A DNA stretch of 64,000 nt from Rhodothermales bacterium (GTDB taxonomy: Bacteria; Bacteroidota; Rhodothermia; Rhodothermales; Bin80): assembly GCA_965116685.1 (NCBI GenBank), contig OZ220707.1:851655-915654 (forward strand), read 5' to 3'. Below the pieces are notes generated by a model. The model saw nothing but the letters and a program-made list of their open reading frames with translations. It was not told the origin of the DNA and ran no database searches. Both the position numbers and the translations under genes were made by a program. Shown piece after piece: positions 11,443 through 59,287 of the stretch. The first letter of the stretch is position 1; each line of letters starts with the position of its first letter.

Positions 11443-11661
11443 ACATCTTGCATAGATTTACCCTCTCAACTGAATTATTGGATTCTATCCTCCGTACGAC
11501 GAGGGGTTGTGTAAAGTCAATGGTGCATCGAATCTTAAACTCCATATACGTACTGCTGCTGATACGTACGGCACCCGGGCAGTACCCGGAGAATGAACCA
11601 GTTATTTATGGTTGACCTGATTAGTCAACCATGAGATCTCATGCTTTTGAACTGTTGAATC

Positions 11662-12837
11662 ATGCGAGTACTGATCCACGATTTCGGGGCTTATGCCTTC
11701 CCGGTTACGCTGAGCCAAGCTCTTCAGGATCGCGGATATGAAGTTGGACACGCCTATTGTGACAGTCTCATCACAACCCCTCAAAATGTAAGTGCGGGTT
11801 CTGCTGATTTCACGCTCCTACCTGTCCAGACATCTCGCCCACTCAACAAATACAATCTCGTCCAGCGATGGATTCAGGAACAGGAATACGGGCGGCTGGC
11901 TACTCGTGTCATTCTGGATTTTAACCCGGATGTCGTGATTTCTGCAAATGCACCCCTAAATGCACAGGAACGCATTCTGAGATCATGCAAGCAAAATAGT
12001 ATTCCATTTGTGTTTTGGCTGCAGGACCTGATTGGATTGGCAACTTCAAGAGTACTGAAATCAAAGCTCCCTCTTTTCTCTTCAGTCATCGGCCGCTACT
12101 TCCAGTCGCTTGAGGGACGATTGCTTCGAAAGAGTGATGCCGTAATTTTGATCACGGAGGATTTTACTCCTGCCCTCCAGAAGTTCGGGATTGCATCTGA
12201 CCGCTGTCATGTGATTGAAAACTGGGGCACTCTGGATCGATTTGAAGGCGACCCTTCGACATGGGCGCGAAAAAATGAACTCAATCGGTGCCCCATTCTA
12301 CTTTATGCGGGTACATTGAGTATGAAGCACAACCCTGCTACCCTGCTGCATCTTGCACAGCAGATTGGTAACCGTGCTCAAATTGTGGTCGTTTCGCAAG
12401 GAGCAGGAGCAGATTGGCTTACGAAAACGATTACTGAGCATAATCTTAATAACCTGACGGTTCTACCCTACCAGGAAGTAGATCAACTACCTGCGGTATA
12501 CGCCAGTGCACAAATACTTCTGGTTTTACTCACCGAAGATGCAGGGCAGTTTTCCGTGCCATCAAAAGTATTGACCTGTCTCTGCGCAGGCCGGCCAATT
12601 CTTGCCGCCATCCCCAGAGAAAATCTGGCAGCACGAATAATTAAGGACTCAGGAGCAGGGTTTATTACGGATCCAAATGATCATGTTGAGTTTGTTCAGA
12701 AAGCTCAACTGCTTCTCAATGAACCAGAGTTATGTCAGTCCATGGGCGAAAACGCTCGAAAATGGGCAGATGAACAATTTGAGATCGGTAAAATCACCGA
12801 TCAGTTTGAGCATGTCCTTAAGCAGGCATCTACATGA
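11662..12837 (+). CDS. Glycosyltransferase family 4 (GT-B, WcaI-like)
   Basis: 391-aa GT-B type protein. The C-terminal half has the GT1/GT4 nucleotide-sugar binding pattern. Sits within an EPS locus. Confidence 0.8.
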   Translation: MRVLIHDFGAYAFPVTLSQALQDRGYEVGHAYCDSLITTPQNVSAGSADFTLLPVQTSRPLNKYNLVQRWIQEQEYGRLATRVILDFNPDVVISANAPLNAQERILRSCKQNSIPFVFWLQDLIGLATSRVLKSKLPLFSSVIGRYFQSLEGRLLRKSDAVILITEDFTPALQKFGIASDRCHVIENWGTLDRFEGDPSTWARKNELNRCPILLYAGTLSMKHNPATLLHLAQQIGNRAQIVVVSQGAGADWLTKTITEHNLNNLTVLPYQEVDQLPAVYASAQILLVLLTEDAGQFSVPSKVLTCLCAGRPILAAIPRENLAARIIKDSGAGFITDPNDHVEFVQKAQLLLNEPELCQSMGENARKWADEQFEIGKITDQFEHVLKQAST

Positions 12838-14000
12838 ACCGCCCGATTGCCTATGTAGCACGTTTCGTGCCTGAATATCGACGTCCCATTCTAGAAAAAC
12901 TGAATGAACAATTGGATGGACGGCTCATTGTGTGCGCAGGTACTTCCCGTGACACTTCTTTCAAAGATTTATCCCGTGGCCCTGCCCCAGGCTATCGGCG
13001 CATTGATCTAAAAAATAGATGGATCGGCAACCAAAGGGCATTGATCCAAAATTCGTGCCCTATTTTTGGATGCAATCCCATTGTAATTCTGGCAGAGGAA
13101 TCGCCCCGTACGGTCTCGCTACCCTGGTTACTGGCGACTGCTCGGTTAAAACAGATTGGCACCTTGCTATGGGGGCATTTTTCATCGAATCGGCGAGCAT
13201 TTTCCGAGCGAAATCTGCTTGATCGCTACCGAATCGCTTTGGCAAAACGTGTGGATGGGTGCGTCTGCTATACCGATGAAATCGCGGACCTAATCCGCCC
13301 CCATGTACCTGCTGAACGCCGTTTTATTGCCCGCAACACATTGGACACGGACGAACTGTTCCAGATACATAAGACCTTGGAGGCGGAGGGGAAAGAACAT
13401 GTTCGGGCCCGCCTTGGCATACCTATGCAAGGAAAGACGATGGTATTTATTGGACGCCTTGTCGCTGATAAGAAACCCGAAGTGCTGCTCAATCTGCACA
13501 AGAAGTTATGCACAAAAGAAAAGACCACACTCATTATCATTGGAGATGGCCCGGAGCGGAATCGGCTAATAGCTCAGGCCCAAGATGAAGACCTAGGAAA
13601 TGTATTCTTCCCGGGAACACTCACAAAGCTCGAAGACTCTGCACCCTGGATGTATGCAGCAGATGTAATGGTTTGCCCAGGATATGTCGGGTTAAATGTG
13701 AACCATGCATTTTGTCTGGGCCTCCCTGTGGTTACCTGTAGCAGTCCTGACCCACAAATCCGCTATCACAGCCCGGAGATCGCTTACCTGAAAACCGGTG
13801 TAAACGGCGTGCTGGCTCCTTACGGTGATCTCGATTCTCTTGTGAAAGCAACTCTGACTGTATTAGAAGATCAAGAGCGCTTCTCATCCCAGGCATACGA
13901 GTATGCACAATCACATCTACAATTACAGGGAATGATTGTCGGCTTAGTCCAAGCCATTGAGCATGCGGAGTCCTGTGCATTACATAAACAACCCCTATAG
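12834..14000 (+). CDS. Glycosyltransferase family 4
   Basis: 4-nt overlap with the upstream glycosyltransferase. Motifs FIGRLVADKKPEVLL and GLPVVT are typical of GT4. Confidence 0.8.
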   Translation: MNRPIAYVARFVPEYRRPILEKLNEQLDGRLIVCAGTSRDTSFKDLSRGPAPGYRRIDLKNRWIGNQRALIQNSCPIFGCNPIVILAEESPRTVSLPWLLATARLKQIGTLLWGHFSSNRRAFSERNLLDRYRIALAKRVDGCVCYTDEIADLIRPHVPAERRFIARNTLDTDELFQIHKTLEAEGKEHVRARLGIPMQGKTMVFIGRLVADKKPEVLLNLHKKLCTKEKTTLIIIGDGPERNRLIAQAQDEDLGNVFFPGTLTKLEDSAPWMYAADVMVCPGYVGLNVNHAFCLGLPVVTCSSPDPQIRYHSPEIAYLKTGVNGVLAPYGDLDSLVKATLTVLEDQERFSSQAYEYAQSHLQLQGMIVGLVQAIEHAESCALHKQPL

Positions 14001-17893: not shown

Positions 17894-18593
17894 ATGGAAC
17901 CTTATCTGGACTTGACGCGACTCACCTTGGGATTGGGGGAGGACTGGACGATTGACAAGGCGCTTCTGGATGAGCAGATTCAGCGGATGGACATCTACAT
18001 ATCTCATTCGGGAGGTGCGTTGATTTGTCCCGAGACGAGCGAGACGGGGACGCTCTATGATCATGGAACGGAGCGGACATGACGGCACTTGGATTGCTAT
18101 GAATTCAAGTATTTTGTACATCGCCAGGTTCCCCGGATTCAGTCGTCTGCGGGCGTGAAGACGATCCAGACTCCCTGGCAACGGCGTCGAGTCGGTTTAC
18201 CAGTGTGTTTGAGTGCTGGACGATTCATTTACTGAAAGCAACCAAGAACCAGACGAAGACGGCCCAGCTGCTTCGTCGTAAGTTTGACACGGTCAACCGC
18301 ATCCTGCACCGCAGTGTATCGTGTGGGATGAAGCGCAGGCCGCTGGACGAGATTGCATATGTGAGTGTAGACGAGAAGGCATTTCAGCATGGACATCGCT
18401 ATGCAACGATTGTCAGTGATTCGAGGCGTGGGGTCGTGATTGATGTTGGGGAAGGCCGGGACAAAGCCAGTGCAAAAACTCTGTTAGGCCGCCTTCTGGT
18501 ACAGAAAAAGGGAACGGTCCAGACGATTACGACGGATATGTGGAGGGCCTACATTACCGCGATCCAGAAGCTGTTTCCCACGGCCATCCTGAT
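17894..18593 (+). pseudogene. ISL3 transposase, N-terminal and central part (degenerate)
   Basis: TGA at 18080-18082 lies where the ISL3 consensus has Trp (ERT-stop-RHLD). There is a frameshift before SRFTSVFECW. The DDE_Tnp_ISL3 core (VSVDEKAF...TTDMWRAYITAIQKLFPTAIL) ends abruptly at 18593. Confidence 0.8.
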
Positions 18594-18747
18594 ATCGCGG
18601 TAGGGACCCGGATTGCTCCCACAAGCGCTAACTTGTTTGATTAAGAAAATATTTTTCAATCTGAGGTTTTCTTTTACGGTTAGATCCTCAAGTCCATTCG
18701 AGATCATTTTCCAATCTCGAATCATGGTCTCCAGACCACATGAAGGC

Positions 18748-19923
18748 TCAATCGCCCGAGTTACTTGATTCAAGGCGAACTTGAAGTTTTTCCAAGGGCT
18801 CGTTTGGAATGCGGTAGCCCCAGGGGGAAAAAGTTCGTGCATGACGAACGATTTTTTCCGTGAGCAGTGCCACCAAGAACTTTCCGTAAAGCCAGGCCTT
18901 CGCACTCTCTTGGTCATATTTCGGTAAATGACCAAATTGAGACAATGATTTGAATCGTTTGAATACGAGTTCAACCTGCCACCTCAGGCGATACCAATCA
19001 AGCACCTGCGATGCAGAAAATTGATCTGCTGGAAATGTGGTAAATACAATGACATAGCGCGCAAAGCGTAGCGTTTGTTCCATGGGCTTTGTTCCATGGT
19101 TTTGGGCATCCTTGCGAATTTTCTTGCAGGCCTTCTGGGCCGCTTCCTCTGTTTTCCGAAGGACACAAACACGCCCCGGTACCGGAGGATCCGACCCGAC
19201 GTACACCTTCCATTCCCCAATTGCACCAATGCGGGTGATGGACTCCACCGCACGCAACAGATCAAAGGATGTGTCAGGCTTCGTATGGAAATGGAGCGTA
19301 CCCGTATTCACACGAACGGTGACATACCCACCAGATTTTGTCACGTATTGCACGCCGCTGGCCGTTGCATAGACACGGTCCGCCAGAATATAATCCCCAG
19401 AATGAACCGGAAATTGTTTGAATGATTCGCCGGTTCCCTTTCCCTTGGTTGGAGTAAGTTTGAAGAAATCGCACCCAAAGGAAGGCAGGGCTACGCTATA
19501 ATGTATGCGCCACTGCGACCCAGTTCGTCCAGGCTCGCAGACCACCGTGGCATCAAACGCACGTACTTGATGCTTCGTATCACCAGAGATCGTGCTCCCA
19601 TGTTCCTCAAATAGTGCCTTGCAGAGTGCAGAAAGCCAGTCCCGAGATTTGCGTAGACGTTTGAGCAGCGCTACATCCGATAGCTCGGCCAGATTTGCCT
19701 GACGAGCTCGTACCACGGTTTCACGTAGGGAATGCCCGCATCCCAAATGGATAAGCAGCGTTCGCAGAAGGGCCTCTGGAGACTTATCCTTACGCAGTCC
19801 GCGTAAGGCGCCCGTATCCGCTGCTAAATCCTTCCAGTTCTCGGGCAGAAACGAAAGCAAGACACCCCAGTCCTCACTAATCGGTGCCGTCGTAACGGTT
19901 CGCTTCATGAAAATTCCGATCAA
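18748..19923 (-). CDS. IS4-family DDE transposase
   Basis: Carries the IS4 Y-(2)-R-(3)-E-(6)-K signature YRLRWQVELVFKRFK. The ORF is uninterrupted. The probable ATG start is at 19908; the track start at 19923 is a TTG. Confidence 0.85.
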   Translation of the reverse strand: MIGIFMKRTVTTAPISEDWGVLLSFLPENWKDLAADTGALRGLRKDKSPEALLRTLLIHLGCGHSLRETVVRARQANLAELSDVALLKRLRKSRDWLSALCKALFEEHGSTISGDTKHQVRAFDATVVCEPGRTGSQWRIHYSVALPSFGCDFFKLTPTKGKGTGESFKQFPVHSGDYILADRVYATASGVQYVTKSGGYVTVRVNTGTLHFHTKPDTSFDLLRAVESITRIGAIGEWKVYVGSDPPVPGRVCVLRKTEEAAQKACKKIRKDAQNHGTKPMEQTLRFARYVIVFTTFPADQFSASQVLDWYRLRWQVELVFKRFKSLSQFGHLPKYDQESAKAWLYGKFLVALLTEKIVRHARTFSPWGYRIPNEPLEKLQVRLESSNSGD

Positions 19924-19927
19924 GTTC

Positions 19928-20025
19928 GAGGTTCTTGCAAAACTCTTCTACAATCCGAATAATATACCCGTAGACACTCTCAGAGCAATATTCGCCTCCA
20001 AATGAGAGAGTTTTGCAAGAGGCTC
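19928..20025. mobile_element. 98-bp MITE, copy 1, in the 5' leader of the IS4 transposase gene
   Basis: About 90% identical by eye to 59210-59307. Terminal inverted repeats are GAGGTTCTTGCAAAACTCT / AGAGTTTTGCAAGAGGCTC. Flanked by the direct repeat AGTTC. Confidence 0.8.
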
Positions 20026-20688
20026 AGTTCCTTTGATTTAGGGAAAGCTACAATAATTATTGATTGTAAACAAGTTAGCGCTTATGCGGATTGCTCCGGG
20101 CCCCCCGCACAGATCCGGACGTGCGCGTTAACGCATCCGGCTCCTCCCTCGGGTCGCACCGGCGTGCATAACGGCAGAATTGCCGTAGCCGATTGATCCC
20201 ATAAACTCACTGATCCATCTCTGTGTATGGCGTGAGCCCGGATCTCCCAGCTTCCCCTTGGGTGGGGACCTTCGCTCCAGCGACTCCGCAGGTCGCCCCT
20301 TGTTCGCCGCCTTCTTCACTACTATGTCCCCATCTGACTGCTCCATCCCGTGCATCGCAGGCTTCGGCGTCTTCCGCCTTCCCTGCGCGATCCCAACTCT
20401 GCGTTTAGGACAGGATAGAGCCCTCACAGGTCCCGACAAAATGCGTACATATGTCCCTGAGTTCTTAGACACCGTGGGCCTGTATGCCGCCTCGCCATGG
20501 CGGTGACATACATGTTGCCTTCGACCACTTGGACAGCCTCGGCGACCCAGACGATAACGATTTCGTTGCTCAATAGCTCCGGCCACACGCACCTCTACCG
20601 ACGCTTCGTCGTGACCCTCGCGGGGCACAACGCACGGCTCGAGGAAGTATGTGATTGGTTGCATCTTCATACTACGGGACTTGCACCC

Positions 20689-22572
20689 ATCGCGGTAGGG
20701 ACCCGAGTTTCCTCGGGCCCCCCGCACAGATCCGGACGTGCGCGTTAACGCATCCGGCTCCTCCCTTGGGTTACACTCGCGTGCTTGACGGAAAATCGTC
20801 TCGCCGGCCAGTCGTGTCGTATGTTCAGCTTCGGCCAATAGCGCTCAATGAGGATATCCAACTGCTCCCATGTGGTCCGATCCTTCTGGGATCGTCGACG
20901 TAGGATACACAGCCATACCCATTTCAAGCACTTAAAACATCTCCATAGGTACCGATAACTCCATGGTACGGCATAGTAATTCAGCCATCCATTAAGAACT
21001 TGGCCAAGCCATAGGCCCGTATCATGCACGCTTTCGTGCATCCGGCGCCATAGCTCCCTACGAATTCGTTTTATGAAGCGCACCATGCGCTTCGCGATTG
21101 GCTTACGGCCCAGCCCAAATGACCCCTTACGGGTTTTACGACAGTAATGTGTAAATCCCAGAAAGTCAAAGGTCTTCGGCTTGCCGTCTCCCCGTTTTCT
21201 ACGGTGCTCCATCGCGTTGCGACCAAATTCGATCAGTCGCGTTTTGTCTGGATGCAGACTCAATCCGAATTTCTCCAGTCGGGCCCGCAATGCACGTAGA
21301 AACTTCTCCGCCTCCTCCTTATACTTTCCACAAAATCGTCCGCATAACGAACGATATACGACTCTCCACCGATCTTGCGTGATTTGCGCTGGGACTCAAA
21401 CCATAAGTCCAGCACGTAATGAAGGTAGATGTTGGCCAGAATCGGAGAGATCACCGCGCCTTGCGGCGTGCCTCGCCTACTTTCCTGCCAGTTCCCATCC
21501 TCCATCACCCCCGCCTTCAGAAATTTTGTGATGAGTCGGAGCACCCGTTGATCTGCAATCCGGTGTTCCAGGAAGCGGAGTAACCACTCCTGATCCACCA
21601 TGTCAAAGAATTTCCGAATGTCCGCATCCACCACATAGTTGACCCTCCGGCGTTCGATCACATACGCGACGGCATCCAGTCCATCATGGGCACTGCGCCC
21701 CGGCCTGAATCCATAGCTGAACCCGCAGAACTCATTTTCATAAATGGGCTCTAAGATACATTTTACCATCGCGGTCTGGACGATCTTGTCCTCCAGCGCT
21801 GCGATCCCAAGCGGTCGTGTGCCTCCATCAGGCTTCGGTATATTCACCCGCCTGCTGGGGGTCGCTCGAAACGATCCACGGTGTACGCGTGTGCAGAGAT
21901 CCGCAAGGTTGCGGTCCAAGTCCACGCTATACTCCTCCCACGTCACGTTGTCCACCCCAGGGGACGCTTCTCGCTTTAATGCGAAAAACGCCGCCGTCAG
22001 TGATTCCACGCTGATGTGGTGCAAGAGCGTTGTAAACTTCGGGTTCCGTTGTACGACTTCCCGTATCCGCTCAATCCCCTGGTGCACACGCGCCCATTTC
22101 TGCGCATGGTGTGTGGTGGGATCTTGCGGATTCCCCTCGGGTAGAGGCCTTCGCTCCGACCGCTCCGCGGATGGCTCCTTGTTCGCGGTCTTCCTCACTA
22201 CTATGCCTCTATCTGACTTCTCCATCTCGTGCATCTTAGGCTTCGGCGTCTTCCGCCTTCTCTAAGCGGCCCCGTACGACTACAGGGCAAGATGGAGACC
22301 TCCCAGGTCCCGGCAAAGTGCGTACGTGCGTCCCTGAGTTCCTGGACACCGTGGGCCTGTAGATCCTCTCACCATAACGATGACCTACATGGTGCCTTCG
22401 ACCTGTAACACAGCCTCGACGACCCAGATAATGCATATTTCGTTGCTCAATAGCTCCGGCCACACGCACCGCTGCCGACACTTCATCGGGACCCTCACGG
22501 ATCACAACGCACGGCTCGCGGAAATATGTGTTTTGGTTAAACTTCATACTGCAGGACTTGCACCTGCTACAC
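20689..22572 (-). mobile_element. Group II intron copy A (likely class C-like, no En domain)
   Basis: On the minus strand the 5' end reads GUGUAGCAGGUGCAAGUCCUGC. DV is GAGCCGGAUGCGUUAACGCGCACGUCCGGAUC (20729-20760). DVI has a GAAA loop and a bulged A 8 nt from the 3' end, which reads ...CCGCGAU. Confidence 0.85.
20745..22234 (-). pseudogene. Group II intron reverse transcriptase/maturase, frameshifted after YADD (copy A)
   Basis: The 324-aa ORF holds RT blocks IPKPDGGTRPLGI, FRPGRSAHD, DADIRKFFD, GTPQGAVISPILANIYL and RYADDFV. The 181-aa ORF in another frame continues with ...LHPDKTRLIEF, FDFLGFTHY and the maturase motif LNGWLNYY. The shift is at about 21324-21334. Confidence 0.85.
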
Positions 22573-22595
22573 TTATGCCAGTTAGCCTGGCGTTC

Positions 22596-24479
22596 ATCGC
22601 GGTAGGGACCCGAGTTTCCTCGGGCCCCCCGCACAGATCCGGACGTGCGCGTTAACGCATCCGGCTCCTCCCTTGGGTTACACTCGCGTGCTTGACGGAA
22701 AATCGTCTCGCCGGCCAGTCGTGTCGTATGTTCAGCTTCGGCCAATAGCGCTCAATGAGGATATCCAACTGCTCCCATGTGGTCCGATCCTTCTGGGATC
22801 GTCGACGTAGGATACACAGCCATACCCATTTCAAGCACTTAAAACATCTCCATAGGTACCGATAACTCCATGGTACGGCATAGTAATTCAGCCATCCATT
22901 AAGAACTTGGCCAAGCCATAGGCCCGTATCATGCACGCTTTCGTGCATCCGGCGCCATAGCTCCCTACGAATTCGTTTTATGAAGCGCACCATGCGCTTC
23001 GCGATTGGCTTACGGCCCAGCCCAAATGACCCCTTACGGGTTTTACGACAGTAATGTGTAAATCCCAGAAAGTCAAAGGTCTTCGGCTTGCCGTCTCCCC
23101 GTTTTCTACGGTGCTCCATCGCGTTGCGACCAAATTCGATCAGTCGCGTTTTGTCTGGATGCAGACTCAATCCGAATTTCTCCAGTCGGGCCCGCAATGC
23201 ACGTAGAAACTTCTCCGCCTCCTCCTTATACTTTCCACAAAATCGTCCGCATAACGAACGATATACGACTCTCCACCGATCTTGCGTGATTTGCGCTGGG
23301 ACTCAAACCATAAGTCCAGCACGTAATGAAGGTAGATGTTGGCCAGAATCGGAGAGATCACCGCGCCTTGCGGCGTGCCTCGCCTACTTTCCTGCCAGTT
23401 CCCATCCTCCATCACCCCCGCCTTCAGAAATTTTGTGATGAGTCGGAGCACCCGTTGATCTGCAATCCGGTGTTCCAGGAAGCGGAGTAACCACTCCTGA
23501 TCCACCATGTCAAAGAATTTCCGAATGTCCGCATCCACCACATAGTTGACCCTCCGGCGTTCGATCACATACGCGACGGCATCCAGTCCATCATGGGCAC
23601 TGCGCCCCGGCCTGAATCCATAGCTGAACCCGCAGAACTCATTTTCATAAATGGGCTCTAAGATACATTTTACCATCGCGGTCTGGACGATCTTGTCCTC
23701 CAGCGCTGCGATCCCAAGCGGTCGTGTGCCTCCATCAGGCTTCGGTATATTCACCCGCCTGCTGGGGGTCGCTCGAAACGATCCACGGTGTACGCGTGTG
23801 CAGAGATCCGCAAGGTTGCGGTCCAAGTCCACGCTATACTCCTCCCACGTCACGTTGTCCACCCCAGGGGACGCTTCTCGCTTTAATGCGAAAAACGCCG
23901 CCGTCAGTGATTCCACGCTGATGTGGTGCAAGAGCGTTGTAAACTTCGGGTTCCGTTGTACGACTTCCCGTATCCGCTCAATCCCCTGGTGCACACGCGC
24001 CCATTTCTGCGCATGGTGTGTGGTGGGATCTTGCGGATTCCCCTCGGGTAGAGGCCTTCGCTCCGACCGCTCCGCGGATGGCTCCTTGTTCGCGGTCTTC
24101 CTCACTACTATGCCTCTATCTGACTTCTCCATCTCGTGCATCTTAGGCTTCGGCGTCTTCCGCCTTCTCTAAGCGGCCCCGTACGACTACAGGGCAAGAT
24201 GGAGACCTCCCAGGTCCCGGCAAAGTGCGTACGTGCGTCCCTGAGTTCCTGGACACCGTGGGCCTGTAGATCCTCTCACCATAACGATGACCTACATGGT
24301 GCCTTCGACCTGTAACACAGCCTCGACGACCCAGATAATGCATATTTCGTTGCTCAATAGCTCCGGCCACACGCACCGCTGCCGACACTTCATCGGGACC
24401 CTCACGGATCACAACGCACGGCTCGCGGAAATATGTGTTTTGGTTAAACTTCATACTGCAGGACTTGCACCTGCTACAC
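22596..24479 (-). mobile_element. Group II intron copy B
   Basis: Offset +1907 from copy A, with identical ORF translations. Confidence 0.85.
22652..24141 (-). pseudogene. Group II intron RT/maturase, same frameshift (copy B)
   Basis: The 324-aa and 181-aa translations are identical to copy A. Confidence 0.85.
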
Positions 24480-24502
24480 TTATGCCAGTTAGCCTGGCGT
24501 TC

Positions 24503-26386
24503 ATCGCGGTAGGGACCCGAGTTTCCTCGGGCCCCCCGCACAGATCCGGACGTGCGCGTTAACGCATCCGGCTCCTCCCTTGGGTTACACTCGCGTGCTT
24601 GACGGAAAATCGTCTCGCCGGCCAGTCGTGTCGTATGTTCAGCTTCGGCCAATAGCGCTCAATGAGGATATCCAACTGCTCCCATGTGGTCCGATCCTTC
24701 TGGGATCGTCGACGTAGGATACACAGCCATACCCATTTCAAGCACTTAAAACATCTCCATAGGTACCGATAACTCCATGGTACGGCATAGTAATTCAGCC
24801 ATCCATTAAGAACTTGGCCAAGCCATAGGCCCGTATCATGCACGCTTTCGTGCATCCGGCGCCATAGCTCCCTACGAATTCGTTTTATGAAGCGCACCAT
24901 GCGCTTCGCGATTGGCTTACGGCCCAGCCCAAATGACCCCTTACGGGTTTTACGACAGTAATGTGTAAATCCCAGAAAGTCAAAGGTCTTCGGCTTGCCG
25001 TCTCCCCGTTTTCTACGGTGCTCCATCGCGTTGCGACCAAATTCGATCAGTCGCGTTTTGTCTGGATGCAGACTCAATCCGAATTTCTCCAGTCGGGCCC
25101 GCAATGCACGTAGAAACTTCTCCGCCTCCTCCTTATACTTTCCACAAAATCGTCCGCATAACGAACGATATACGACTCTCCACCGATCTTGCGTGATTTG
25201 CGCTGGGACTCAAACCATAAGTCCAGCACGTAATGAAGGTAGATGTTGGCCAGAATCGGAGAGATCACCGCGCCTTGCGGCGTGCCTCGCCTACTTTCCT
25301 GCCAGTTCCCATCCTCCATCACCCCCGCCTTCAGAAATTTTGTGATGAGTCGGAGCACCCGTTGATCTGCAATCCGGTGTTCCAGGAAGCGGAGTAACCA
25401 CTCCTGATCCACCATGTCAAAGAATTTCCGAATGTCCGCATCCACCACATAGTTGACCCTCCGGCGTTCGATCACATACGCGACGGCATCCAGTCCATCA
25501 TGGGCACTGCGCCCCGGCCTGAATCCATAGCTGAACCCGCAGAACTCATTTTCATAAATGGGCTCTAAGATACATTTTACCATCGCGGTCTGGACGATCT
25601 TGTCCTCCAGCGCTGCGATCCCAAGCGGTCGTGTGCCTCCATCAGGCTTCGGTATATTCACCCGCCTGCTGGGGGTCGCTCGAAACGATCCACGGTGTAC
25701 GCGTGTGCAGAGATCCGCAAGGTTGCGGTCCAAGTCCACGCTATACTCCTCCCACGTCACGTTGTCCACCCCAGGGGACGCTTCTCGCTTTAATGCGAAA
25801 AACGCCGCCGTCAGTGATTCCACGCTGATGTGGTGCAAGAGCGTTGTAAACTTCGGGTTCCGTTGTACGACTTCCCGTATCCGCTCAATCCCCTGGTGCA
25901 CACGCGCCCATTTCTGCGCATGGTGTGTGGTGGGATCTTGCGGATTCCCCTCGGGTAGAGGCCTTCGCTCCGACCGCTCCGCGGATGGCTCCTTGTTCGC
26001 GGTCTTCCTCACTACTATGCCTCTATCTGACTTCTCCATCTCGTGCATCTTAGGCTTCGGCGTCTTCCGCCTTCTCTAAGCGGCCCCGTACGACTACAGG
26101 GCAAGATGGAGACCTCCCAGGTCCCGGCAAAGTGCGTACGTGCGTCCCTGAGTTCCTGGACACCGTGGGCCTGTAGATCCTCTCACCATAACGATGACCT
26201 ACATGGTGCCTTCGACCTGTAACACAGCCTCGACGACCCAGATAATGCATATTTCGTTGCTCAATAGCTCCGGCCACACGCACCGCTGCCGACACTTCAT
26301 CGGGACCCTCACGGATCACAACGCACGGCTCGCGGAAATATGTGTTTTGGTTAAACTTCATACTGCAGGACTTGCACCTGCTACAC
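24503..26386 (-). mobile_element. Group II intron copy C
   Basis: Offset +3814 from copy A, with identical ORF translations. Confidence 0.85.
24559..26048 (-). pseudogene. Group II intron RT/maturase, same frameshift (copy C)
   Basis: The 324-aa and 181-aa translations are identical to copy A. Confidence 0.85.
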
Positions 26387-26409
26387 TTATGCCAGTTAGC
26401 CTGGCGTTC

Positions 26410-28293
26410 ATCGCGGTAGGGACCCGAGTTTCCTCGGGCCCCCCGCACAGATCCGGACGTGCGCGTTAACGCATCCGGCTCCTCCCTTGGGTTACACTCG
26501 CGTGCTTGACGGAAAATCGTCTCGCCGGCCAGTCGTGTCGTATGTTCAGCTTCGGCCAATAGCGCTCAATGAGGATATCCAACTGCTCCCATGTGGTCCG
26601 ATCCTTCTGGGATCGTCGACGTAGGATACACAGCCATACCCATTTCAAGCACTTAAAACATCTCCATAGGTACCGATAACTCCATGGTACGGCATAGTAA
26701 TTCAGCCATCCATTAAGAACTTGGCCAAGCCATAGGCCCGTATCATGCACGCTTTCGTGCATCCGGCGCCATAGCTCCCTACGAATTCGTTTTATGAAGC
26801 GCACCATGCGCTTCGCGATTGGCTTACGGCCCAGCCCAAATGACCCCTTACGGGTTTTACGACAGTAATGTGTAAATCCCAGAAAGTCAAAGGTCTTCGG
26901 CTTGCCGTCTCCCCGTTTTCTACGGTGCTCCATCGCGTTGCGACCAAATTCGATCAGTCGCGTTTTGTCTGGATGCAGACTCAATCCGAATTTCTCCAGT
27001 CGGGCCCGCAATGCACGTAGAAACTTCTCCGCCTCCTCCTTATACTTTCCACAAAATCGTCCGCATAACGAACGATATACGACTCTCCACCGATCTTGCG
27101 TGATTTGCGCTGGGACTCAAACCATAAGTCCAGCACGTAATGAAGGTAGATGTTGGCCAGAATCGGAGAGATCACCGCGCCTTGCGGCGTGCCTCGCCTA
27201 CTTTCCTGCCAGTTCCCATCCTCCATCACCCCCGCCTTCAGAAATTTTGTGATGAGTCGGAGCACCCGTTGATCTGCAATCCGGTGTTCCAGGAAGCGGA
27301 GTAACCACTCCTGATCCACCATGTCAAAGAATTTCCGAATGTCCGCATCCACCACATAGTTGACCCTCCGGCGTTCGATCACATACGCGACGGCATCCAG
27401 TCCATCATGGGCACTGCGCCCCGGCCTGAATCCATAGCTGAACCCGCAGAACTCATTTTCATAAATGGGCTCTAAGATACATTTTACCATCGCGGTCTGG
27501 ACGATCTTGTCCTCCAGCGCTGCGATCCCAAGCGGTCGTGTGCCTCCATCAGGCTTCGGTATATTCACCCGCCTGCTGGGGGTCGCTCGAAACGATCCAC
27601 GGTGTACGCGTGTGCAGAGATCCGCAAGGTTGCGGTCCAAGTCCACGCTATACTCCTCCCACGTCACGTTGTCCACCCCAGGGGACGCTTCTCGCTTTAA
27701 TGCGAAAAACGCCGCCGTCAGTGATTCCACGCTGATGTGGTGCAAGAGCGTTGTAAACTTCGGGTTCCGTTGTACGACTTCCCGTATCCGCTCAATCCCC
27801 TGGTGCACACGCGCCCATTTCTGCGCATGGTGTGTGGTGGGATCTTGCGGATTCCCCTCGGGTAGAGGCCTTCGCTCCGACCGCTCCGCGGATGGCTCCT
27901 TGTTCGCGGTCTTCCTCACTACTATGCCTCTATCTGACTTCTCCATCTCGTGCATCTTAGGCTTCGGCGTCTTCCGCCTTCTCTAAGCGGCCCCGTACGA
28001 CTACAGGGCAAGATGGAGACCTCCCAGGTCCCGGCAAAGTGCGTACGTGCGTCCCTGAGTTCCTGGACACCGTGGGCCTGTAGATCCTCTCACCATAACG
28101 ATGACCTACATGGTGCCTTCGACCTGTAACACAGCCTCGACGACCCAGATAATGCATATTTCGTTGCTCAATAGCTCCGGCCACACGCACCGCTGCCGAC
28201 ACTTCATCGGGACCCTCACGGATCACAACGCACGGCTCGCGGAAATATGTGTTTTGGTTAAACTTCATACTGCAGGACTTGCACCTGCTACAC
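26410..28293 (-). mobile_element. Group II intron copy D
   Basis: Offset +5721 from copy A, with identical ORF translations. Confidence 0.85.
26466..27955 (-). pseudogene. Group II intron RT/maturase, same frameshift (copy D)
   Basis: The 324-aa and 181-aa translations are identical to copy A. Confidence 0.85.
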
Positions 28294-28316
28294 TTATGCC
28301 AGTTAGCCTGGCGTTC

Positions 28317-30200
28317 ATCGCGGTAGGGACCCGAGTTTCCTCGGGCCCCCCGCACAGATCCGGACGTGCGCGTTAACGCATCCGGCTCCTCCCTTGGGTT
28401 ACACTCGCGTGCTTGACGGAAAATCGTCTCGCCGGCCAGTCGTGTCGTATGTTCAGCTTCGGCCAATAGCGCTCAATGAGGATATCCAACTGCTCCCATG
28501 TGGTCCGATCCTTCTGGGATCGTCGACGTAGGATACACAGCCATACCCATTTCAAGCACTTAAAACATCTCCATAGGTACCGATAACTCCATGGTACGGC
28601 ATAGTAATTCAGCCATCCATTAAGAACTTGGCCAAGCCATAGGCCCGTATCATGCACGCTTTCGTGCATCCGGCGCCATAGCTCCCTACGAATTCGTTTT
28701 ATGAAGCGCACCATGCGCTTCGCGATTGGCTTACGGCCCAGCCCAAATGACCCCTTACGGGTTTTACGACAGTAATGTGTAAATCCCAGAAAGTCAAAGG
28801 TCTTCGGCTTGCCGTCTCCCCGTTTTCTACGGTGCTCCATCGCGTTGCGACCAAATTCGATCAGTCGCGTTTTGTCTGGATGCAGACTCAATCCGAATTT
28901 CTCCAGTCGGGCCCGCAATGCACGTAGAAACTTCTCCGCCTCCTCCTTATACTTTCCACAAAATCGTCCGCATAACGAACGATATACGACTCTCCACCGA
29001 TCTTGCGTGATTTGCGCTGGGACTCAAACCATAAGTCCAGCACGTAATGAAGGTAGATGTTGGCCAGAATCGGAGAGATCACCGCGCCTTGCGGCGTGCC
29101 TCGCCTACTTTCCTGCCAGTTCCCATCCTCCATCACCCCCGCCTTCAGAAATTTTGTGATGAGTCGGAGCACCCGTTGATCTGCAATCCGGTGTTCCAGG
29201 AAGCGGAGTAACCACTCCTGATCCACCATGTCAAAGAATTTCCGAATGTCCGCATCCACCACATAGTTGACCCTCCGGCGTTCGATCACATACGCGACGG
29301 CATCCAGTCCATCATGGGCACTGCGCCCCGGCCTGAATCCATAGCTGAACCCGCAGAACTCATTTTCATAAATGGGCTCTAAGATACATTTTACCATCGC
29401 GGTCTGGACGATCTTGTCCTCCAGCGCTGCGATCCCAAGCGGTCGTGTGCCTCCATCAGGCTTCGGTATATTCACCCGCCTGCTGGGGGTCGCTCGAAAC
29501 GATCCACGGTGTACGCGTGTGCAGAGATCCGCAAGGTTGCGGTCCAAGTCCACGCTATACTCCTCCCACGTCACGTTGTCCACCCCAGGGGACGCTTCTC
29601 GCTTTAATGCGAAAAACGCCGCCGTCAGTGATTCCACGCTGATGTGGTGCAAGAGCGTTGTAAACTTCGGGTTCCGTTGTACGACTTCCCGTATCCGCTC
29701 AATCCCCTGGTGCACACGCGCCCATTTCTGCGCATGGTGTGTGGTGGGATCTTGCGGATTCCCCTCGGGTAGAGGCCTTCGCTCCGACCGCTCCGCGGAT
29801 GGCTCCTTGTTCGCGGTCTTCCTCACTACTATGCCTCTATCTGACTTCTCCATCTCGTGCATCTTAGGCTTCGGCGTCTTCCGCCTTCTCTAGGCGGCCC
29901 CGTACGACTACAGGGCAAGATGGAGACCTCCCAGGTCCCGGCAAAGTGCGTACGTGCGTCCCTGAGTTCCTGGACACCGTGGGCCTGTAGATCCTCTCAC
30001 CATAACGATGACCTACATGGTGCCTTCGACCTGTAACACAGCCTCGACGACCCAGATAATGCATATTTCGTTGCTCAATAGCTCCGGCCACACGCACCGC
30101 TGCCGACACTTCATCGGGACCCTCACGGATCACAACGCACGGCTCGCGGAAATATGTGTTTTGGTTAAACTTCATACTGCAGGACTTGCACCTGCTACAC
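28317..30200 (-). mobile_element. Group II intron copy E (5'-most copy in intron orientation)
   Basis: Offset +7628 from copy A. Carries a single observed substitution at 29893. Confidence 0.85.
28373..29862 (-). pseudogene. Group II intron RT/maturase, same frameshift (copy E)
   Basis: The 324-aa and 181-aa translations are identical to copy A. Confidence 0.85.
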
Positions 30201-30223
30201 TTATGCCAGTTAGCCTGGCGTTC

Positions 30224-30252
30224 GTTACATTTTGCCAGTTAGCCTGGCGCTC
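30224..30252 (-). repeat. Orphan, slightly diverged copy of the intron leader hairpin (no intron attached)
   Basis: The minus strand reads GAGCGCCAGGCUAACUGGCAAAAUGUAAC. The leader in each unit reads GAACGCCAGGCUAACUGGCAUAA followed by GUGUAGC. The two share an identical 17-nt core. Confidence 0.7.
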
Positions 30253-30535
30253 CCAAGAGTTATTCCCCAAGGCCCGCCTGATCCACGATCGTTTTCATTT
30301 GATCCAGTACCTCAACAAAGGGATTGATCCGGTTCGCCGCAGGGAAGTGAAACAGCATGAGGAACTCAAACCCAGTCGTTATGCGATCTTGAAAAACGAA
30401 CCGTATCGAACGCAAACGCAAGACGAGATCTTCAACGTCATCCAGGAAGCCAACTTGCAGGTCAGCGTTGCCTGGCGGCTGCGAGAGGAATTCAAGGCGA
30501 TCTTCCGATGCGACTCATGGTCGGATGCAAAGCAA
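30253..30535 (+). pseudogene. ISL3 transposase, central fragment
   Basis: Translation QELFPKARLIHDRFHLIQYLNKGIDPVRRREV...FRCDSWSDAKQ matches the DDE_Tnp_ISL3 region. It ends at the IS1634-like insertion. Confidence 0.8.
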
Positions 30536-30644
30536 AACCTGACTTTGACGGTTTCGATTTTTCCAGGTACAAAACCACTGTTTCCGTGCTTTCTGGGAGG
30601 TTTTTTTTTGGCCTTCCTGTGTAGTGTTCAGTCTTGCTTTTTAA

Positions 30645-31448
30645 TTGTATTTTTCGTATCTTTGTAATTCACCAACCAACTGTGTCATGTGGGTCCGAGA
30701 ACTCAAACGAAAAACCACGAAAAACATCTCTGTCCAGATTGTTGAGAGCTACCGTAATAAGGAAAGAAAGCCGCGGGTTCGTATCGTCCGACACATGGGA
30801 AGCGTTCACCCGGATGCAGTGGACGGTCTGGTTAAAATTGCCTATCTGGAATTAGCTCGGATCCAAGAAGACCTGCAACCCTCCTTATTTCCTGCAGAGT
30901 CTTATGTAGACGAGGTGGTGGCTGCCCGCAGAAAAAAACGGGAGTCGAAGGCACTGGTGATCAAAGATGCACGGAAGCTGGAGGAAATACGGCGCATCTG
31001 TCTGGGCTTTCACGAGGTCATGGGGGCCCTGTATCACCAGATGCGGTTTACAGAGGTCTTTGATCGCCGTCAGAAGATGTCTCGTCGTCTGTTCAAGCAA
31101 GCGGTTTTACTTCGTCTGGCTGCACCTGGGGATAGTAAACTGGCCCATGCACGGCAGATGTCCAAGGATGCGGGGGTGGACGTTCCGGTGGAGAAGTTCT
31201 ATCGGATGATGGATGCCGTCACGGACGACCGAATTGAACAGATGAAGCAGCTGGTCTCCAACGAGACGCTCGGCATGCTTGGCGGGAAACTGAAGGTGCT
31301 GTTTTTTGATGTGACGACATTGAGCTTTGCCAGTGAGTTGCCGGATGAGCTACGCAAGAAAGGGTTTAGCAAGGATGGGAAGCCCAAAAAGGTTCAGTTG
31401 GTCTTGGCATTGATCCAAACCCAAGAAGGGCTTCCGGTCACGTACGAA
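30645..31448 (+). pseudogene. IS1634-family transposase, N-terminal half (interrupted)
   Basis: N-terminus (M)WVRELKRKTTKNISVQIVESYRNKERKPRVRIVRHMG and ...KKGFSKDGKPKKVQLVLALIQTQEGLPVTYE are typical of the family. The probable start is at 30687. Confidence 0.8.
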
Positions 31449-33548
31449 CCCATAATATTCATCTCAATTTAGCAGTTTCGTATTGATAAGCATCTGGGGA
31501 GCCTTATCCTGCTATATTTGTTCCATTCATTGGGCGATTAGCCCTGTTTTTCGTGGATTTTGATCGAATAAACCTCTGTTTTCGTTCTGAATCAAGTCAG
31601 CTGACCTGTTTAAGAATTATCTACTCATTTCACCCTCAAGGTGATCCCATGTCCCCGTCTTCTGCGCCTCTTTTTGTGCTTCCCTTCAACCAGTCAATTC
31701 GGATCAAATCGTCTAGTCGCAACCATACGACCTCGGACGCAGGCGCATTCTTGTTGCGGTCGGTGATTGATCGCACCGGAATCTTGGACTTTTTGACCGA
31801 TCAACTGCACGATCCTCGGGATCCACATCGTATCCACTATCCTTTGTTTGAATACACAGTGGCTGCTTCCGTTAATGCAGGGCTGGAGTTGCTTGTGGAC
31901 GGATGTGGTCAGCCAGGATGCGGCCTTTAGCGTGTCCACCAGCACCAGTCGGGGGGATGGGGTAGTCGGATCGGATCGTACGTTGGCATCGCAGCCGACC
32001 ATGTCCCGCTTGGTGGGTCTGCTGGGCATGGTACAGAATCTGGTTCACTTGAAGGCAGGGCTTCTGAAGGTGGGGATGGAGCATATGCTGGTCCAAAACG
32101 GTGGACGGCGGCGCGATGAAGTGGTCATTGATGTGGATGCGATGCCCGTGGATGCACACGGCAACCAGCTTGGCAGCAAGTATCATGGGCATTATAAGCG
32201 GACCATCTTCCTTCCCCTGATTGCTTCGTGCGGGGAGAGTGGGGATGTGCTCGGGGCGCAATTGCGTCCGGGAACTCAGCGCGAGGTCACCGATTGCGAG
32301 GACTTCATCGTTCCCATCGCCCATGCGGTGCGCCAGCATGTCGCCGACCAAGTCATTGTCCGTATGGACGCCGGCTTCAATAGTGGTGCGTTGTGTGCAC
32401 GACTGGAGGCCGAAAATATTGGCTATCTCATGCGTCTACGCAAGAACAAGACACTGGAGCAGATGGCCGCAAAGTACGTGAAGGATCGCCCGTTGGAGGA
32501 TATGACCTGCATTGAATTGACCTATGGTGCGAAGTCGTGGGAATGTACTCGTCGGGTGGTATTAGTGATCAAGTCGCGCCCGGGAGAACTCTATGATAGG
32601 GTCTATTTTTTGGTGACCAATCTTGACGCGGAGATGTATCCAGGTCAGAAGTTGGTTCCCATGTACAGTCAACGCGGGAAGGCGGAGATGCATCAGGGCG
32701 AGATGAAAATCGCCTGCAGCGCATCATTGTCGTCCTCTCCACGTCCCAAGTCGCATTACCGTCAGAGACCGATTGAGCGTACATACGAAGTGGATCCCGA
32801 TGCGGAGGTCGGCGCGGAGAATGATGTGCGCCTCCAGGTGTACATGCTGGCCTACCAGCTTCTTCACATCAGTCGATGCAACTTGCATAGTCCGCCTCCA
32901 CCGTTGGATGAGACGCCATCGTCTGAACAGACTCCACCGGCGCCAACGCAATGCGCCCAGGGGCTGCGTCAAACGAATCTACCTGGAACTGTGCTGGACG
33001 AATCAACGGGGGGCGCCTTGGAGACGGATGCGCAGGACTCCCCGGACCCCGATCGGCAAGAGGCGCACATGCACATTCGCCGCTTCCGACTGTGTGTGCT
33101 GAAGGTCGGTGCAACCATGGCACGTCATGGCCGCTATGTAACCTTTTATATCGCCCAGTCAGCCGTGCAGGCCTGGAAGCGTTTCCTGGAACATTTTCAG
33201 CAGTTGCAATGGTACACAATACCGGAATATTGAAGCTGAGCCTTTCCGCTACACCCGGAATTCGTGCCTGCTTCGGGCCGGACTCCGAAGCGAAAACCCT
33301 CCCCGGAGGTGATTCTTGGAACGAGTGTAGAGCGAAACGGACCTCGCTGTAGGACTGGACTGCACATGAGGAATGGATTGACCGGAAATCCACCTCAATC
33401 AACCCGGAAAATATGCGAGAATGACCTCGGGAGTCGCCCCAATCGTGAAGGTCAACTCGCAGATCCCATCTCACACAGGAAATCCTGACTCCTCACAACC
33501 AAAGACGCACTTTGGAGCCATGGGAAAATCCATGATGAATAATATGGG
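31449..33548 (+). mobile_element. IS1380-family insertion sequence (2100 bp)
   Basis: IRs are CCCATAATATTCATC at the left and GATGAATAATATGGG at the right. A 5-bp target duplication ACGAA lies at 31444-31448 and 33549-33553. Removing the element restores ...VTYELFPGNTTD in the IS1634 transposase. Confidence 0.85.
31649..33233 (+). pseudogene. IS1380-family transposase with a frameshift near codon 70
   Basis: The N-terminal piece (31649-~31860, ...TSDAGAFLLRSVIDRTGILDFLTDQLHDPRD) is in a different frame from the 461-aa ORF 31848..33233, which carries LASQPTMSRL, DVDAMPVDAHGNQLGSKYHGHYK, RMDAGF and YSQRGKAEMHQGEMK. Confidence 0.75.
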
Positions 33549-33553
33549 ACGAA

Positions 33554-34450
33554 CTCTTTCCCGGCAATACCACCGATGTAAAGACGCTTGAACCGGCGAT
33601 GACGCGCCTCAAAGAATGTTTTGATTTGGATCGGATGATTGTCGTTGCCGATTCAGGGATGTTGAGCAAGGAGAATTTAGCGTTGTTGCAAAGTCTGGGC
33701 TGTGACTATATCGTGGCTGCACGTTTACGGTCATTAAATCAACTCCACACCAAGACGATTCTCGGGGCACAGTCTTGGAAGGTTTTAACGACGGGTCGTA
33801 AGGTTACCGAACACAAACTTGGTGGTCGACGCTTGATTTTGCGCTATTGTCCAAAGAAGGCAGCTCGGGATGTACATTCACGGGAGAAGGCAATTGAGAA
33901 GGTGAAGAATCGTTTGAAACAGGGGGTCAAGGGCACCGGCAGAAGTGGTCGATTTCTGAAGGTGAAGCAGGATGGAGTGAGCTTAGATCAAGCAGCGATT
34001 GTTCGGGATGAGAAGTTTGATGGGCTGCATGGGGTCTGGACGAGTCTGGAGGATCTGACTCCAGAACAAGTCTATCAACATTATGGAGAGTTATGGCGAA
34101 TTGAAGAAGGTTTTCGTGTGATGAAACACACCATGGCGATCCGGCCCATCTTTCACTGGGTCGAGCGTCGGGTGCGTGCCCATATTGCAATCTGTTTTGT
34201 TGCATTTGCCCTGTTACGGATCTTCCGACACCGATATAATGCGAGGTTTGGTTCAAAACATCGCCTGAGTGAAGGGCAGATTTTAGCAGAACTTGGTGCG
34301 GTGGAAACCTCCATGATTTGTGATCGAGGCAATCGGGCAGAATACCTTCTTCCATCGAAGGTTACCGAAACGAGCGGGCGCCTATACCAGACAGTCGGTC
34401 TGACGATACAGCGCCAGACCGTACTGTTCAAAGAGGGGACGACCTCCTAA
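33554..34450 (+). pseudogene. IS1634-family transposase, C-terminal half
   Basis: In frame with 30645..31448 once the IS1380 element and one TSD copy are removed. Contains the DDE region DRMIVVADSGM and YGELWRIEEGFRVMK. Confidence 0.8.
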
Positions 34451-58315: not shown

Positions 58316-59287
58316 ATGAACTTTCAACAGCCAAAACCAGACTCAAAAAAATATTCAGACCTCATTAACGAGATTCAGAAAGGCGTAATCAAAATCCCCA
58401 AGTTTCAACGCGAGTTTGTCTGGAGTATAGATAAGACAGCCAAGCTACTGGACAGCATTCTGAAAGGATATCCGATTGGTACATTTATTTTTTGGCAAAC
58501 AGATGAACGAATTAATGACATTAAGAACGTTGGGAACTTGGAGATTCCCGATACGCCGGAAGGAAACCAAGTTCAGTATGTATTGGACGGACAACAACGT
58601 ATTACCTCCCTTTTTGCTGCTTACCTTGGTGCTCGGATTCAGAAGACGGGCGAAAAGACGATAACGGACTATAACAAGATTTTTGTCAATCTCGACAAAG
58701 ATATAAGCGAAAATGACGGCCAGGTAATTACCGCCGAAACCACGGGGGAGAAAAATATATCGCTATCTGAAGTCCTGAACTTTAACTATGCCAAAGCAAA
58801 AGAACTTTCCGATGAATTCAGTGACGACGAATTAGATACTATCAATGCATATTCAACGGCGTTTAAGACGTATGAATTCTCAACTGTAGTTCTTAGAAAG
58901 GAAGATATTGACTCGGCAATCGAAGTTTTCACTCGTATTAACACAAGCGGGCAAACACTTACATTGTTTGAAATCGTGTCTGCCAAAACCTATGATGAAG
59001 AGCAAGGGTTCGATATGCAGGCGAAGTGGGAAGACTTTATAAAAGAACTTAAGGATATTCGGTATGAAGGTATATCGAGCACTGTAATTCTCAGCCTGCT
59101 TTCTCTTGTTCTAAGCCGAACTAAAGAATGCAAACGCAAGACCATACTGGCTTTGGATAAGCAAGCGATAATAAATAATTGGGATGCGGCAATATCTGCC
59201 TTAAAGGATGAGGTTCTTGCAAAACTCTTCTACAATCCACATTCTATGCCCGTAGACACCCTCAGAGCAATATTTTCCTCCAAATGA
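58316..59287 (+). CDS. GmrSD-like protein, N-terminal DUF262 (ParB-like NTPase) fragment, terminated by a stop inside an inserted MITE
   Basis: DUF262 motifs IKIPKFQREFVWS and LDGQQRITSL. The last 26 codons and the stop come from the 98-bp insert. Confidence 0.75.
   Translation: MNFQQPKPDSKKYSDLINEIQKGVIKIPKFQREFVWSIDKTAKLLDSILKGYPIGTFIFWQTDERINDIKNVGNLEIPDTPEGNQVQYVLDGQQRITSLFAAYLGARIQKTGEKTITDYNKIFVNLDKDISENDGQVITAETTGEKNISLSEVLNFNYAKAKELSDEFSDDELDTINAYSTAFKTYEFSTVVLRKEDIDSAIEVFTRINTSGQTLTLFEIVSAKTYDEEQGFDMQAKWEDFIKELKDIRYEGISSTVILSLLSLVLSRTKECKRKTILALDKQAIINNWDAAISALKDEVLAKLFYNPHSMPVDTLRAIFSSK

Follow-up and report, generated by a model that had tools for sequence, protein, structure and literature searches.

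The closest described counterpart of the locus analysed here is the subgroup IIB1 group II intron EcKTE56.groEL of E. coli, which integrates in tandem into a homing site that already carries a copy (Gomes, Toffano-Nioche, Gautheret, Costa, Mob DNA 2025; PMC12584367). Among integration-positive colonies, tandems accounted for 4% with the full-length intron and 22% with the intron deleted of its open reading frame (ORF), and they form through a wobble pair between the U of exon-binding site 3 (EBS3) and G1, the first G of the resident copy (PMC12584367). In Methanosarcina acetivorans, other group II introns serve as recurrent homing targets for group II introns (Dai and Zimmerly 2003, reviewed in PMC4424553). 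We analysed 64,000 nucleotides (nt) of the Rhodothermales bacterium assembly GCA_965116685.1 (contig OZ220707.1, positions 851,655-915,654, hereafter the window), the genome of which is called Rhodothermaceae, and found that five group II introns (A1-A5, A1 being the 5'-most) lie head to tail inside an outer group II intron (B). The array probably arose by re-invasion of a self-regenerating homing site by a trans-mobilised A intron, with recombination possibly adding copies.

The repeat was measured by comparing the window with itself at an offset of 1907 bp and by BLAST of one unit against the window. As evident from this comparison, positions 20689-30223 are exactly 5 x 1907 bp, head to tail and all on the minus strand; identity at the offset runs unbroken from 20688 to 28316 (paired with 22595-30223) with one mismatch, 27986 versus 29893, and every ORF of the array repeats at +1907. 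By BLAST, four copies matched the unit at 100% and one at 99.95%. The single-nucleotide polymorphism (SNP) lies in A1 (window 29893, intron nt 331), where C replaces an ancestral U that is kept by relatives and by A2-A5; it does not discriminate between models of origin. Tandem Repeats Finder gave no output for the window because its longest period is 500, below the 1907-bp repeat. Each A copy matched RF02005 (group-II-D1D4-6) on the minus strand with 147.8 bits (Rfam gathering score, 49 bits) and RF00029, the model of domains V and VI (D5/D6), with 39.9 bits, which is 0.1 bits under the gathering score of 40 bits; the latter match covered the full model and ended exactly at ...CGCGAU, and homologous introns of relatives scored 40-58 bits. 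The Rfam alignment showed a 32-nt D5 with the AGC triad and a D6 whose bulged A lies 8 nt from the 3' end, and the ribozyme was small, with ~440 nt outside the ORF. A is clearly a group II intron by descent. On the repeat, the intron identity, D5/D6 and the single SNP we agree with a sequence-only reading of the same stretch, which had described a perfect 1907-bp head-to-tail array of five near-identical group II introns with ORFs recurring at +1907, a single difference between copies and the same D5, D6 and ...GAU 3' end; both Rfam models match every unit, and the aligned copies do not differ substantially.

The 5' boundary had to be moved. The sequence-only reading had started a 1884-nt intron at GUGUAGCAGG and placed a conserved 23-nt spacer before each copy. 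Relatives of the reverse transcriptase (RT) of A were taken from genome collections, where the close ones were all found in Rhodothermales/Rhodothermaceae metagenome-assembled genomes (MAGs), and 49 related loci (labelled L001 and so on) were scanned. In every solo copy, GUGCG-CCAGGCUAACUGGC-AAAA sits immediately 5' of GUGUAGCGGG, and the flanks beyond it are mutually unrelated; across other Rhodothermales genomes, homologues of the intron begin with GUGCG and the hairpin at more than 12 sites that are unrelated to one another. An alignment of 17 family copies revealed G(U/A)(G/A)(C/U)G and the hairpin before GUGUAGC, with similarity ending upstream of it. In this alignment the 5' hairpin and a second 5' helix were both 100% paired, and base changes on one strand were compensated on the other, as where three copies have U-A in place of C-G. 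Because solo copies at unrelated sites carry the same 5' end, and because the exons upstream of it pair with a co-varying exon-binding site 1 (EBS1), the supposed spacer is the first 23 nt of the intron, its 5'-terminal GNNCG and hairpin, so that each unit is a complete 1907-nt intron and the array is without spacers. The possibility that these nucleotides are captured 5' exon or ISL3 sequence was ruled out, as the solo copies show them to be intronic. The Rfam D1D4-6 model (for example, the match at 29965-30188) starts 35 nt inside the intron, at a point in the loop of the second 5' helix. Boundaries called with this model therefore omit GUGCG and the 5' hairpin, which probably fed the misplaced start.

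The usual GUGYG 5' end was not found in either intron of the window: the A copies begin with GAACG and B with GAGCG, whereas GUGCG is present in 12 of the 17 aligned copies. GAACG is shared with L034_outer, an intron in a different MAG that is 88-90% identical to A. The alignment columns were searched for an epsilon' partner that could compensate for GAACG, but none was found, as only one stem position was specific to A and L034, and a metagenome scan for the GAACG-type 5' end (GAACGCCAGGCTAACTGGCA) returned 7 matches, all of them unrelated chance matches without intron similarity.

Target recognition could be read from covariation. A loop of domain I, CGAGGCNG-N6/7-GGUCGAAGG, co-varies as EBS1, in ~12 copies, with the final 5-6 nt of the 5' exon; the pairs (EBS1/5' exon end) include GGUAAU/AUUGCC, GGCAA/UUGCC, CCCCAU/AUGGGG, CCGCAU/AUGCGG, AAACUU/AAGUUU, AUACGC/GCGUAU, GUACGC/GCGUAC and CCAAGA/UCUUGG. 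In A1, EBS1 GUUACA faces UGUAAC of B and forms 6 perfect base pairs with no wobble, and by this pairing the junction between the B fragment and A1 is a bona fide homing junction. The native UGUAAC precedes A1 only. At the internal junctions, which read ...CCGCGAU|GAACGCC four times with zero spacer, CGCGAU pairs with EBS1 at 3 positions only, two of them G-U. Insertion behind the 3' end of a resident copy is thus unsupported and was rejected, whereas the pairing supports insertion at the junction of the B fragment with an intron.

A candidate for EBS3 was found by searching the columns of the domain I alignment: nt 252, in GGUGUC-N-AAGAAC, is Watson-Crick complementary to the +1 exon base in 13 of the 16 copies scored. 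A has C at this position, and G stands at +1 whether B (GGGUG) or A itself (GAACG) follows. The occupied site would still be a complete target, because the intron-binding site 1 (IBS1) is untouched and the first G of A restores the +1 G. The equivalent of the B target within A reads AGG in place of GGG, which would mismatch the candidate EBS3 and may protect A from nesting into itself. No EBS2 was assignable; AUCUGG was considered for this role and dropped, as the conserved segment is a structural stem in the Rfam consensus.

The outer intron was absent from the sequence-only reading, as were the insertion sequence (IS) within it and the intact RTs described below. B was recognised from a sixth, divergent RF02005 match (20460-20683, 163.2 bits); it comprises 30252-30224 and 20688-18594 on the minus strand and is ORF-less, its RT ORF having been almost wholly deleted. 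The EBS1 of B, CCAAG, pairs with CUUGG of its own 5' exon. Because the A array interrupts B precisely between nt 29 and 30, the locus is a twintron in which five tandem copies make up the inner intron. When rejoined, B aligned gap-free to the B-type introns of L034 and L007, with no junction base lost, gained or duplicated, as is expected of retrohoming.

The RT of A was found to be split into ORFs of 324 and 181 aa by a net 7-nt deletion directly after YADDFV (GUGG[UGUGUUUUC]AGUA to GUGG[AA]AGUA), which is identical in all five copies. PF00078 matched the N-terminal half. The intact paralogue P0001 (486 aa) matched TIGR04416 with 371 bits (cut-off, 300) over residues 67-438, and no endonuclease (En) domain was present in the RT, as judged from the TIGR04416 coverage and from the best PDB relatives, which are En-less RTs. 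The nearest solved RTs were IIC enzymes (7uim, E 9e-45; GsI-IIC 6ar1, E 3.5e-43). The sequence-only reading had also concluded that the RT lacks an endonuclease and that A's own RT was probably not the driver; both conclusions stand, since the frameshift is common to all copies and the RT of A therefore cannot have driven the amplification.

An enzyme acting in trans was available. Nine of the 10 window proteins tested are encoded on a 3,755,968-bp (3.76-Mb) contig of the same genome, and this contig also encodes five intact RTs (P0001-P0005) that are 98-99% identical to that of A, together with two of the B-related type. The five intact sister RTs could act in trans on A. Moreover, mobilisation in trans is evidently routine in the A/B intron family, because ORF-less B-type introns occupy EBS1-matched sites in several genomes. 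L034_outer carries the same RT indel (L034 ~11500). Both halves of the ORF are open in L034_outer and in A, and the ratio of nonsynonymous to synonymous substitution (dN/dS) between the two introns is 0.14 in the N-terminal half and 0.16 in the C-terminal one, with dS ~0.4. These values would fit either gene conversion from the intact sisters or a frameshift that is tolerated or bypassed; no convincing -1 slippery heptamer was found at the frameshift.

Taken together, the proposed sequence of events is as follows. A, a non-autonomous intron of 1907 nt with a frameshifted RT, would have retrohomed site-specifically between nt 29 and 30 of the ORF-less B, the site being chosen by pairing of UGUAAC in B with EBS1 GUUACA and of the next base, G, with the candidate EBS3 C. 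The initial G of A would then put a G back at +1 next to an unchanged 5' exon, leaving the occupied site as good as an empty one. Further copies of A would have entered this junction by reverse splicing, every newcomer lying immediately upstream of its predecessor, so that the array would grow at its 5' side, with the RT/maturase supplied in trans by intact sister introns of the same genome. With two copies present, RecA-type unequal recombination across the perfect 1.9-kb repeats could alter the copy number. We infer the re-invasion event, and any division of the five copies between re-invasion and recombination, from what is observed at the locus, namely its anatomy, the intron boundaries, the pairings, the regenerated target and the intact RTs at hand.

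Several observations weigh against re-invasion. All five copies combine the non-canonical GAACG 5' end with a broken RT, and they may not be competent for splicing and reverse splicing. The EBS3 is a candidate drawn from covariation, with exceptions in 3 of 16 copies; among these is the upstream member of the tandem junction in L031, an intron that has G against a +1 G. In L034_outer, the closest relative of A, the 5' exon does not match its EBS1. The near-identity of the copies is equally compatible with recombinational amplification. Additionally, no other homotypic full-length tandem was found among the 49 related loci scanned, although easy re-invasion should make such tandems commoner, and the copy number is that of a metagenome assembly.

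The last point leads to the alternative to which we leave the most room, although we consider it unlikely: that the true copy number is lower or variable and that the assembler settled on five. The window comes from a single-contig 3.76-Mb MAG, counting perfect 1.9-kb repeats is difficult without reads that span ~10 kb, and the lone SNP could be a consensus error. However, the junction of a 3' end to a 5' end requires reads that contain it, and therefore a tandem of two or more copies must be real. Tandem repeats that an assembler fails to resolve are more often collapsed than expanded, and both edges of the array are unique and biologically coherent, with an EBS1-matched 5' exon on one side and B nt 30 on the other.

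An origin purely at the DNA level is somewhat less credible, and we would assign it only a slim chance. In this case a single A insertion would have been duplicated by slipped replication or illegitimate recombination and expanded by unequal crossing-over, with no second retrohoming. Perfect tandem repeats of 1.9 kb are classic substrates of unequal recombination, the copies are identical save for one derived SNP in an edge copy, and every copy has the RT frameshift and the GAACG 5' end. Such an origin is nevertheless unlikely because the first duplication needs breakpoints at the exact first and last nucleotides of the intron without microhomology (...GUAAC|GAACG and ...GCGAU|GGGUG), which amounts to ~1 chance in 1900 per end, whereas retrohoming into a regenerated site gives the observed junctions by construction. 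In addition, heterotypic zero-spacer junctions between introns were found in two other genomes (L031 11520|11521 and L007 264|265, each a 3' end followed by GUGCG), and these cannot come from duplication.

A one-step concatemeric cDNA could be made by an RT that switches templates, leaving one intron RNA at its 5' end and resuming at the 3' end of a second, or by rolling-circle copying of intron circles, which do exist. It would account for the exact 3'-end to 5'-end joins and the identical copies, but we hold it to be highly improbable. Once an intron RNA is fully reverse-spliced, its 5' end is no longer free for a switch; switching also tends to add or drop bases, yet all four internal junctions and the two outer ones are flawless. 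Moreover, the outer junction on the 5' side is a clean splice junction matched to EBS1, and integration of such a concatemer is without known precedent. Template switching as such is readily performed by group II RTs (PMC3683930). Of the three origins offered by the sequence-only reading, iterative self-targeted insertion is thus favoured by base pairing, unequal crossover is retained as a possible contributor, and a concatemeric or rolling-circle intermediate is disfavoured.

Re-invasion of the occupied site has a direct parallel in EcKTE56.groEL. In both cases the 3' end of one copy is joined to the 5' end of the next with zero spacer. The new groEL copy enters between the 5' exon, which stays unchanged, and the resident's first G, and pairing of EBS3 with that G makes the tandem possible (PMC12584367); a new A copy would lie at the corresponding place, where the candidate EBS3 would pair with the G. 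The trans-mobilised ORF-deleted groEL intron forms tandems more often than the full-length intron. The two systems are not identical. The groEL tandems comprise two copies, were obtained in over-expression assays, make up ~3% of intron-containing reads, depend on a U-G wobble and occur at the stop codon of a housekeeping gene; in contrast, the A array comprises five fixed copies in a natural genome, with a predicted canonical C-G pair and another intron as the target, and A belongs to the Rfam D1D4-6 lineage with a frameshifted RT and a GAACG 5' end.

The introns of Methanosarcina are similar in other respects. According to PMC4424553, related introns serve as homing sites, ORF-less derivatives are moved in trans, no host genes are found in the exons, and insertions into a "perpetual homing site" are balanced by recombinational deletion. 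However, these archaeal introns of other lineages are nested up to five deep and are not homotypic head-to-tail arrays. The statement in the sequence-only reading that such a configuration is undescribed was too strong, given the zero-spacer tandem of 2025 (PMC12584367) and the intron-into-intron homing of Methanosarcina (PMC4424553); an earlier natural example of a re-invaded occupied homing site was not found in the literature searched.

As in bacterial and plastid twintrons (Trichodesmium, Euglena; PMC4649490, PMC4424553), one group II intron precisely interrupts another. In these twintrons the outer intron is restored only once the inner one is removed (PMC4649490, PMC4424553). Unlike in known twintrons, the inner element is a five-fold tandem, and B is ORF-less and broken by an IS; for these two reasons the A/B unit is probably not a functioning splicing cassette.

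The A family shares with group IIC introns (B.h.I1, GsI-IIC) an En-less RT whose nearest solved relatives are IIC enzymes, a small ribozyme and, at the A target, a DNA hairpin that lies 9-10 nt upstream of the insertion point. In contrast to IIC introns, the family uses targets set by a 5-6-bp IBS1 and IBS3, within IS elements, repeat elements and intron sequences rather than terminators or attC, and most of its sites have no such hairpin. Its intron-encoded proteins are also longer, 486-500 aa compared with ~420 aa in group IIC. The targeting of the family thus appears not to be IIC-like, although its nearest solved RTs are IIC enzymes; a search of the literature on Rhodothermus and Salinibacter gave no class assignment.

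Nesting of introns is common among the relatives. B-type introns were found inside RT ORFs (L034, L033), and a full-length intron inside domain I of an ORF-less one (L007, L035). Nucleotide ~296/297 of the family was repeatedly occupied by another group II intron (RF01999, D1D4-2; Table 1) and is thus a second site of recurrent intron-in-intron homing. The B-type derivatives (~645 nt, ORF-less) share one internal deletion across at least three genomes (L034 10455-11100; L007 1-264 and 265-2831; B of the window), and their sites match their EBS1 (CCAAG/CUUGG). They appear to behave like a family of non-autonomous introns resembling miniature inverted-repeat transposable elements. Outside this order, Bradyrhizobium sp. 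DASA03120 (NZ_CP182469.1, L012-L046) has an RT with 55% identity and at least 25 copies in one chromosome, which shows that an intron lineage related to this family has multiplied in the strain; the 10-kb flanks examined revealed no tandem among these copies.

Table 1. Positions of the introns, their parts and adjoining elements in the window, and of the nested RF01999 introns in related loci.
Feature	Position	Strand	Remarks
Intron A1	28317..30223	-	Full 1907 nt; 5'-most; only copy whose 5' exon pairs with EBS1; sole derived SNP
A1 EBS1	30037-30032	-	GUUACA
A1 candidate EBS3	29972	-	C
Intron A2	26410..28316	-	Identical to A3-A5; 100% over 1907 nt
Intron A3	24503..26409	-	BLAST, Rfam
Intron A4	22596..24502	-	BLAST, Rfam
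Intron A5	20689..22595	-	3'-most; last base adjoins B nt 30
A5 D1-D4	22337-22560		
A5 D5/D6	20689-20762		
A5 RT ORF halves	21260-22234 and 20745-21290		Frameshift (net -7 nt) at 21327/21326
ISL3-family transposase fragment (C-terminal)	30253..30667	+	Pfam PF01610 profile positions 71-172
B 5' exon	ends at 30253		Antisense of the C-terminal ISL3 fragment; ends ...AACUCUUGG
B nt 1-29 (GAGCGCCAGGCUAACUGGCAAAAUGUAAC)	30224..30252	-	GAGCG, hairpin GCCAG-GCUAA-CUGGC, then AAAAUGUAAC; last 6 nt UGUAAC are IBS1 for A
B nt 30 onward	20087..20688	-	Begins GGGUGCAAGUCCCG; D1-D4, RT-ORF remnant, D5, 5' half of D6
IS target duplication, one copy	20097-20087		Within B
IS, 1467 bp	18620..20086	-	In the D6 loop of B; DDE_Tnp_1 transposase ORF 18748-19923
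B 3' end	18594..18619	-	Second target-duplication copy, D6 3' strand with bulged A, ...CGCGAU
ISL3-family transposase fragment (N-terminal)	18205..18593	+	Pfam PF01610 profile positions 1-80
B 3' exon	starts at 18593		Antisense of the N-terminal ISL3 fragment; starts AUCAGG
RF01999 intron at nt ~296/297	L001 3633-9894		RF00029 ends where the outer intron resumes
RF01999 intron at nt ~296/297	L005 8003-9897		RF00029 ends where the outer intron resumes
RF01999 intron at nt ~296/297	L031 4577-9897		RF00029 ends where the outer intron resumes
RF01999 intron at nt ~296/297	L037 7998-9894		RF00029 ends where the outer intron resumes

The surroundings of the array consist of further mobile elements (Table 1). 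Over 30 nt, the end of the 5' exon of B (30253-30282) and the start of its 3' exon (18564-18593) form an imperfect direct repeat (22/30) that covers the same ISL3 segment (QELFPKARLI versus QKLFPTAILI). This repetition of the same ISL3 codons suggests that B is a recombinant of two introns whose insertion points, in two ISL3 paralogues, were 30 nt apart. The 1467-bp IS in the D6 loop of B has terminal inverted repeats CATAAGCGCTAACTTGTTT and an 11-bp target duplication, GGAGCAATCCG; a fragment of it is also present at window 59210-59307. In other Rhodothermales genomes, relatives of this IS interrupt or adjoin family introns at L002 7337-8698, at L031 ~11562-12854 (after intron nt 42) and in L029, L033 and L001, and this type of IS may favour intron sequence ending ...A(A/G)UCC. 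Window positions 30253-34450 contain transposase remnants, namely the ISL3 fragment, a DDE_Tnp_1_4 ORF (31848-33233) and a DDE_Tnp_1 ORF (33599-34450). The introns thus occupy a mobile-element graveyard outside host genes.

The cumulative GC skew falls over window 1-64000, the plus strand being C-rich, and all six introns are on the minus strand. En-less introns reportedly prefer the lagging-strand template, and the minus-strand orientation of the six introns would fit this preference.

A bolder extension of re-invasion, which we put forward as speculation and think unlikely, is that A represents a hyperparasitic lineage. It would use the 5' hairpin region of its siblings as a self-regenerating homing site, the array would keep growing, and one transcript would release several intron RNAs by sequential splicing. 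The frameshift and the GAACG 5' end would possibly be functional, being bypassed or with the two halves working separately, rather than signs of decay; this part of the idea is raised because purifying selection acts on each half of the ORF in the comparison of A with L034 (dN/dS ~0.15).

The locus is real, unusual and explicable by known biology. It may be the first natural multi-copy case in which a group II intron re-invades a homing site that it already occupies, a behaviour otherwise represented by two-copy laboratory events. It also yields a sequence rule that can be checked across genomes: a tandem is expected when EBS3 is complementary to the first base of the intron itself, and this rule could explain local build-up of introns. 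The corrected boundaries matter for annotation, as automated Rfam-based calls omit the 5' hairpin in the family of A. In Rhodothermales, introns, ORF-less derivatives and IS elements nest in one another, which bears on how retroelements persist without harm to host genes.

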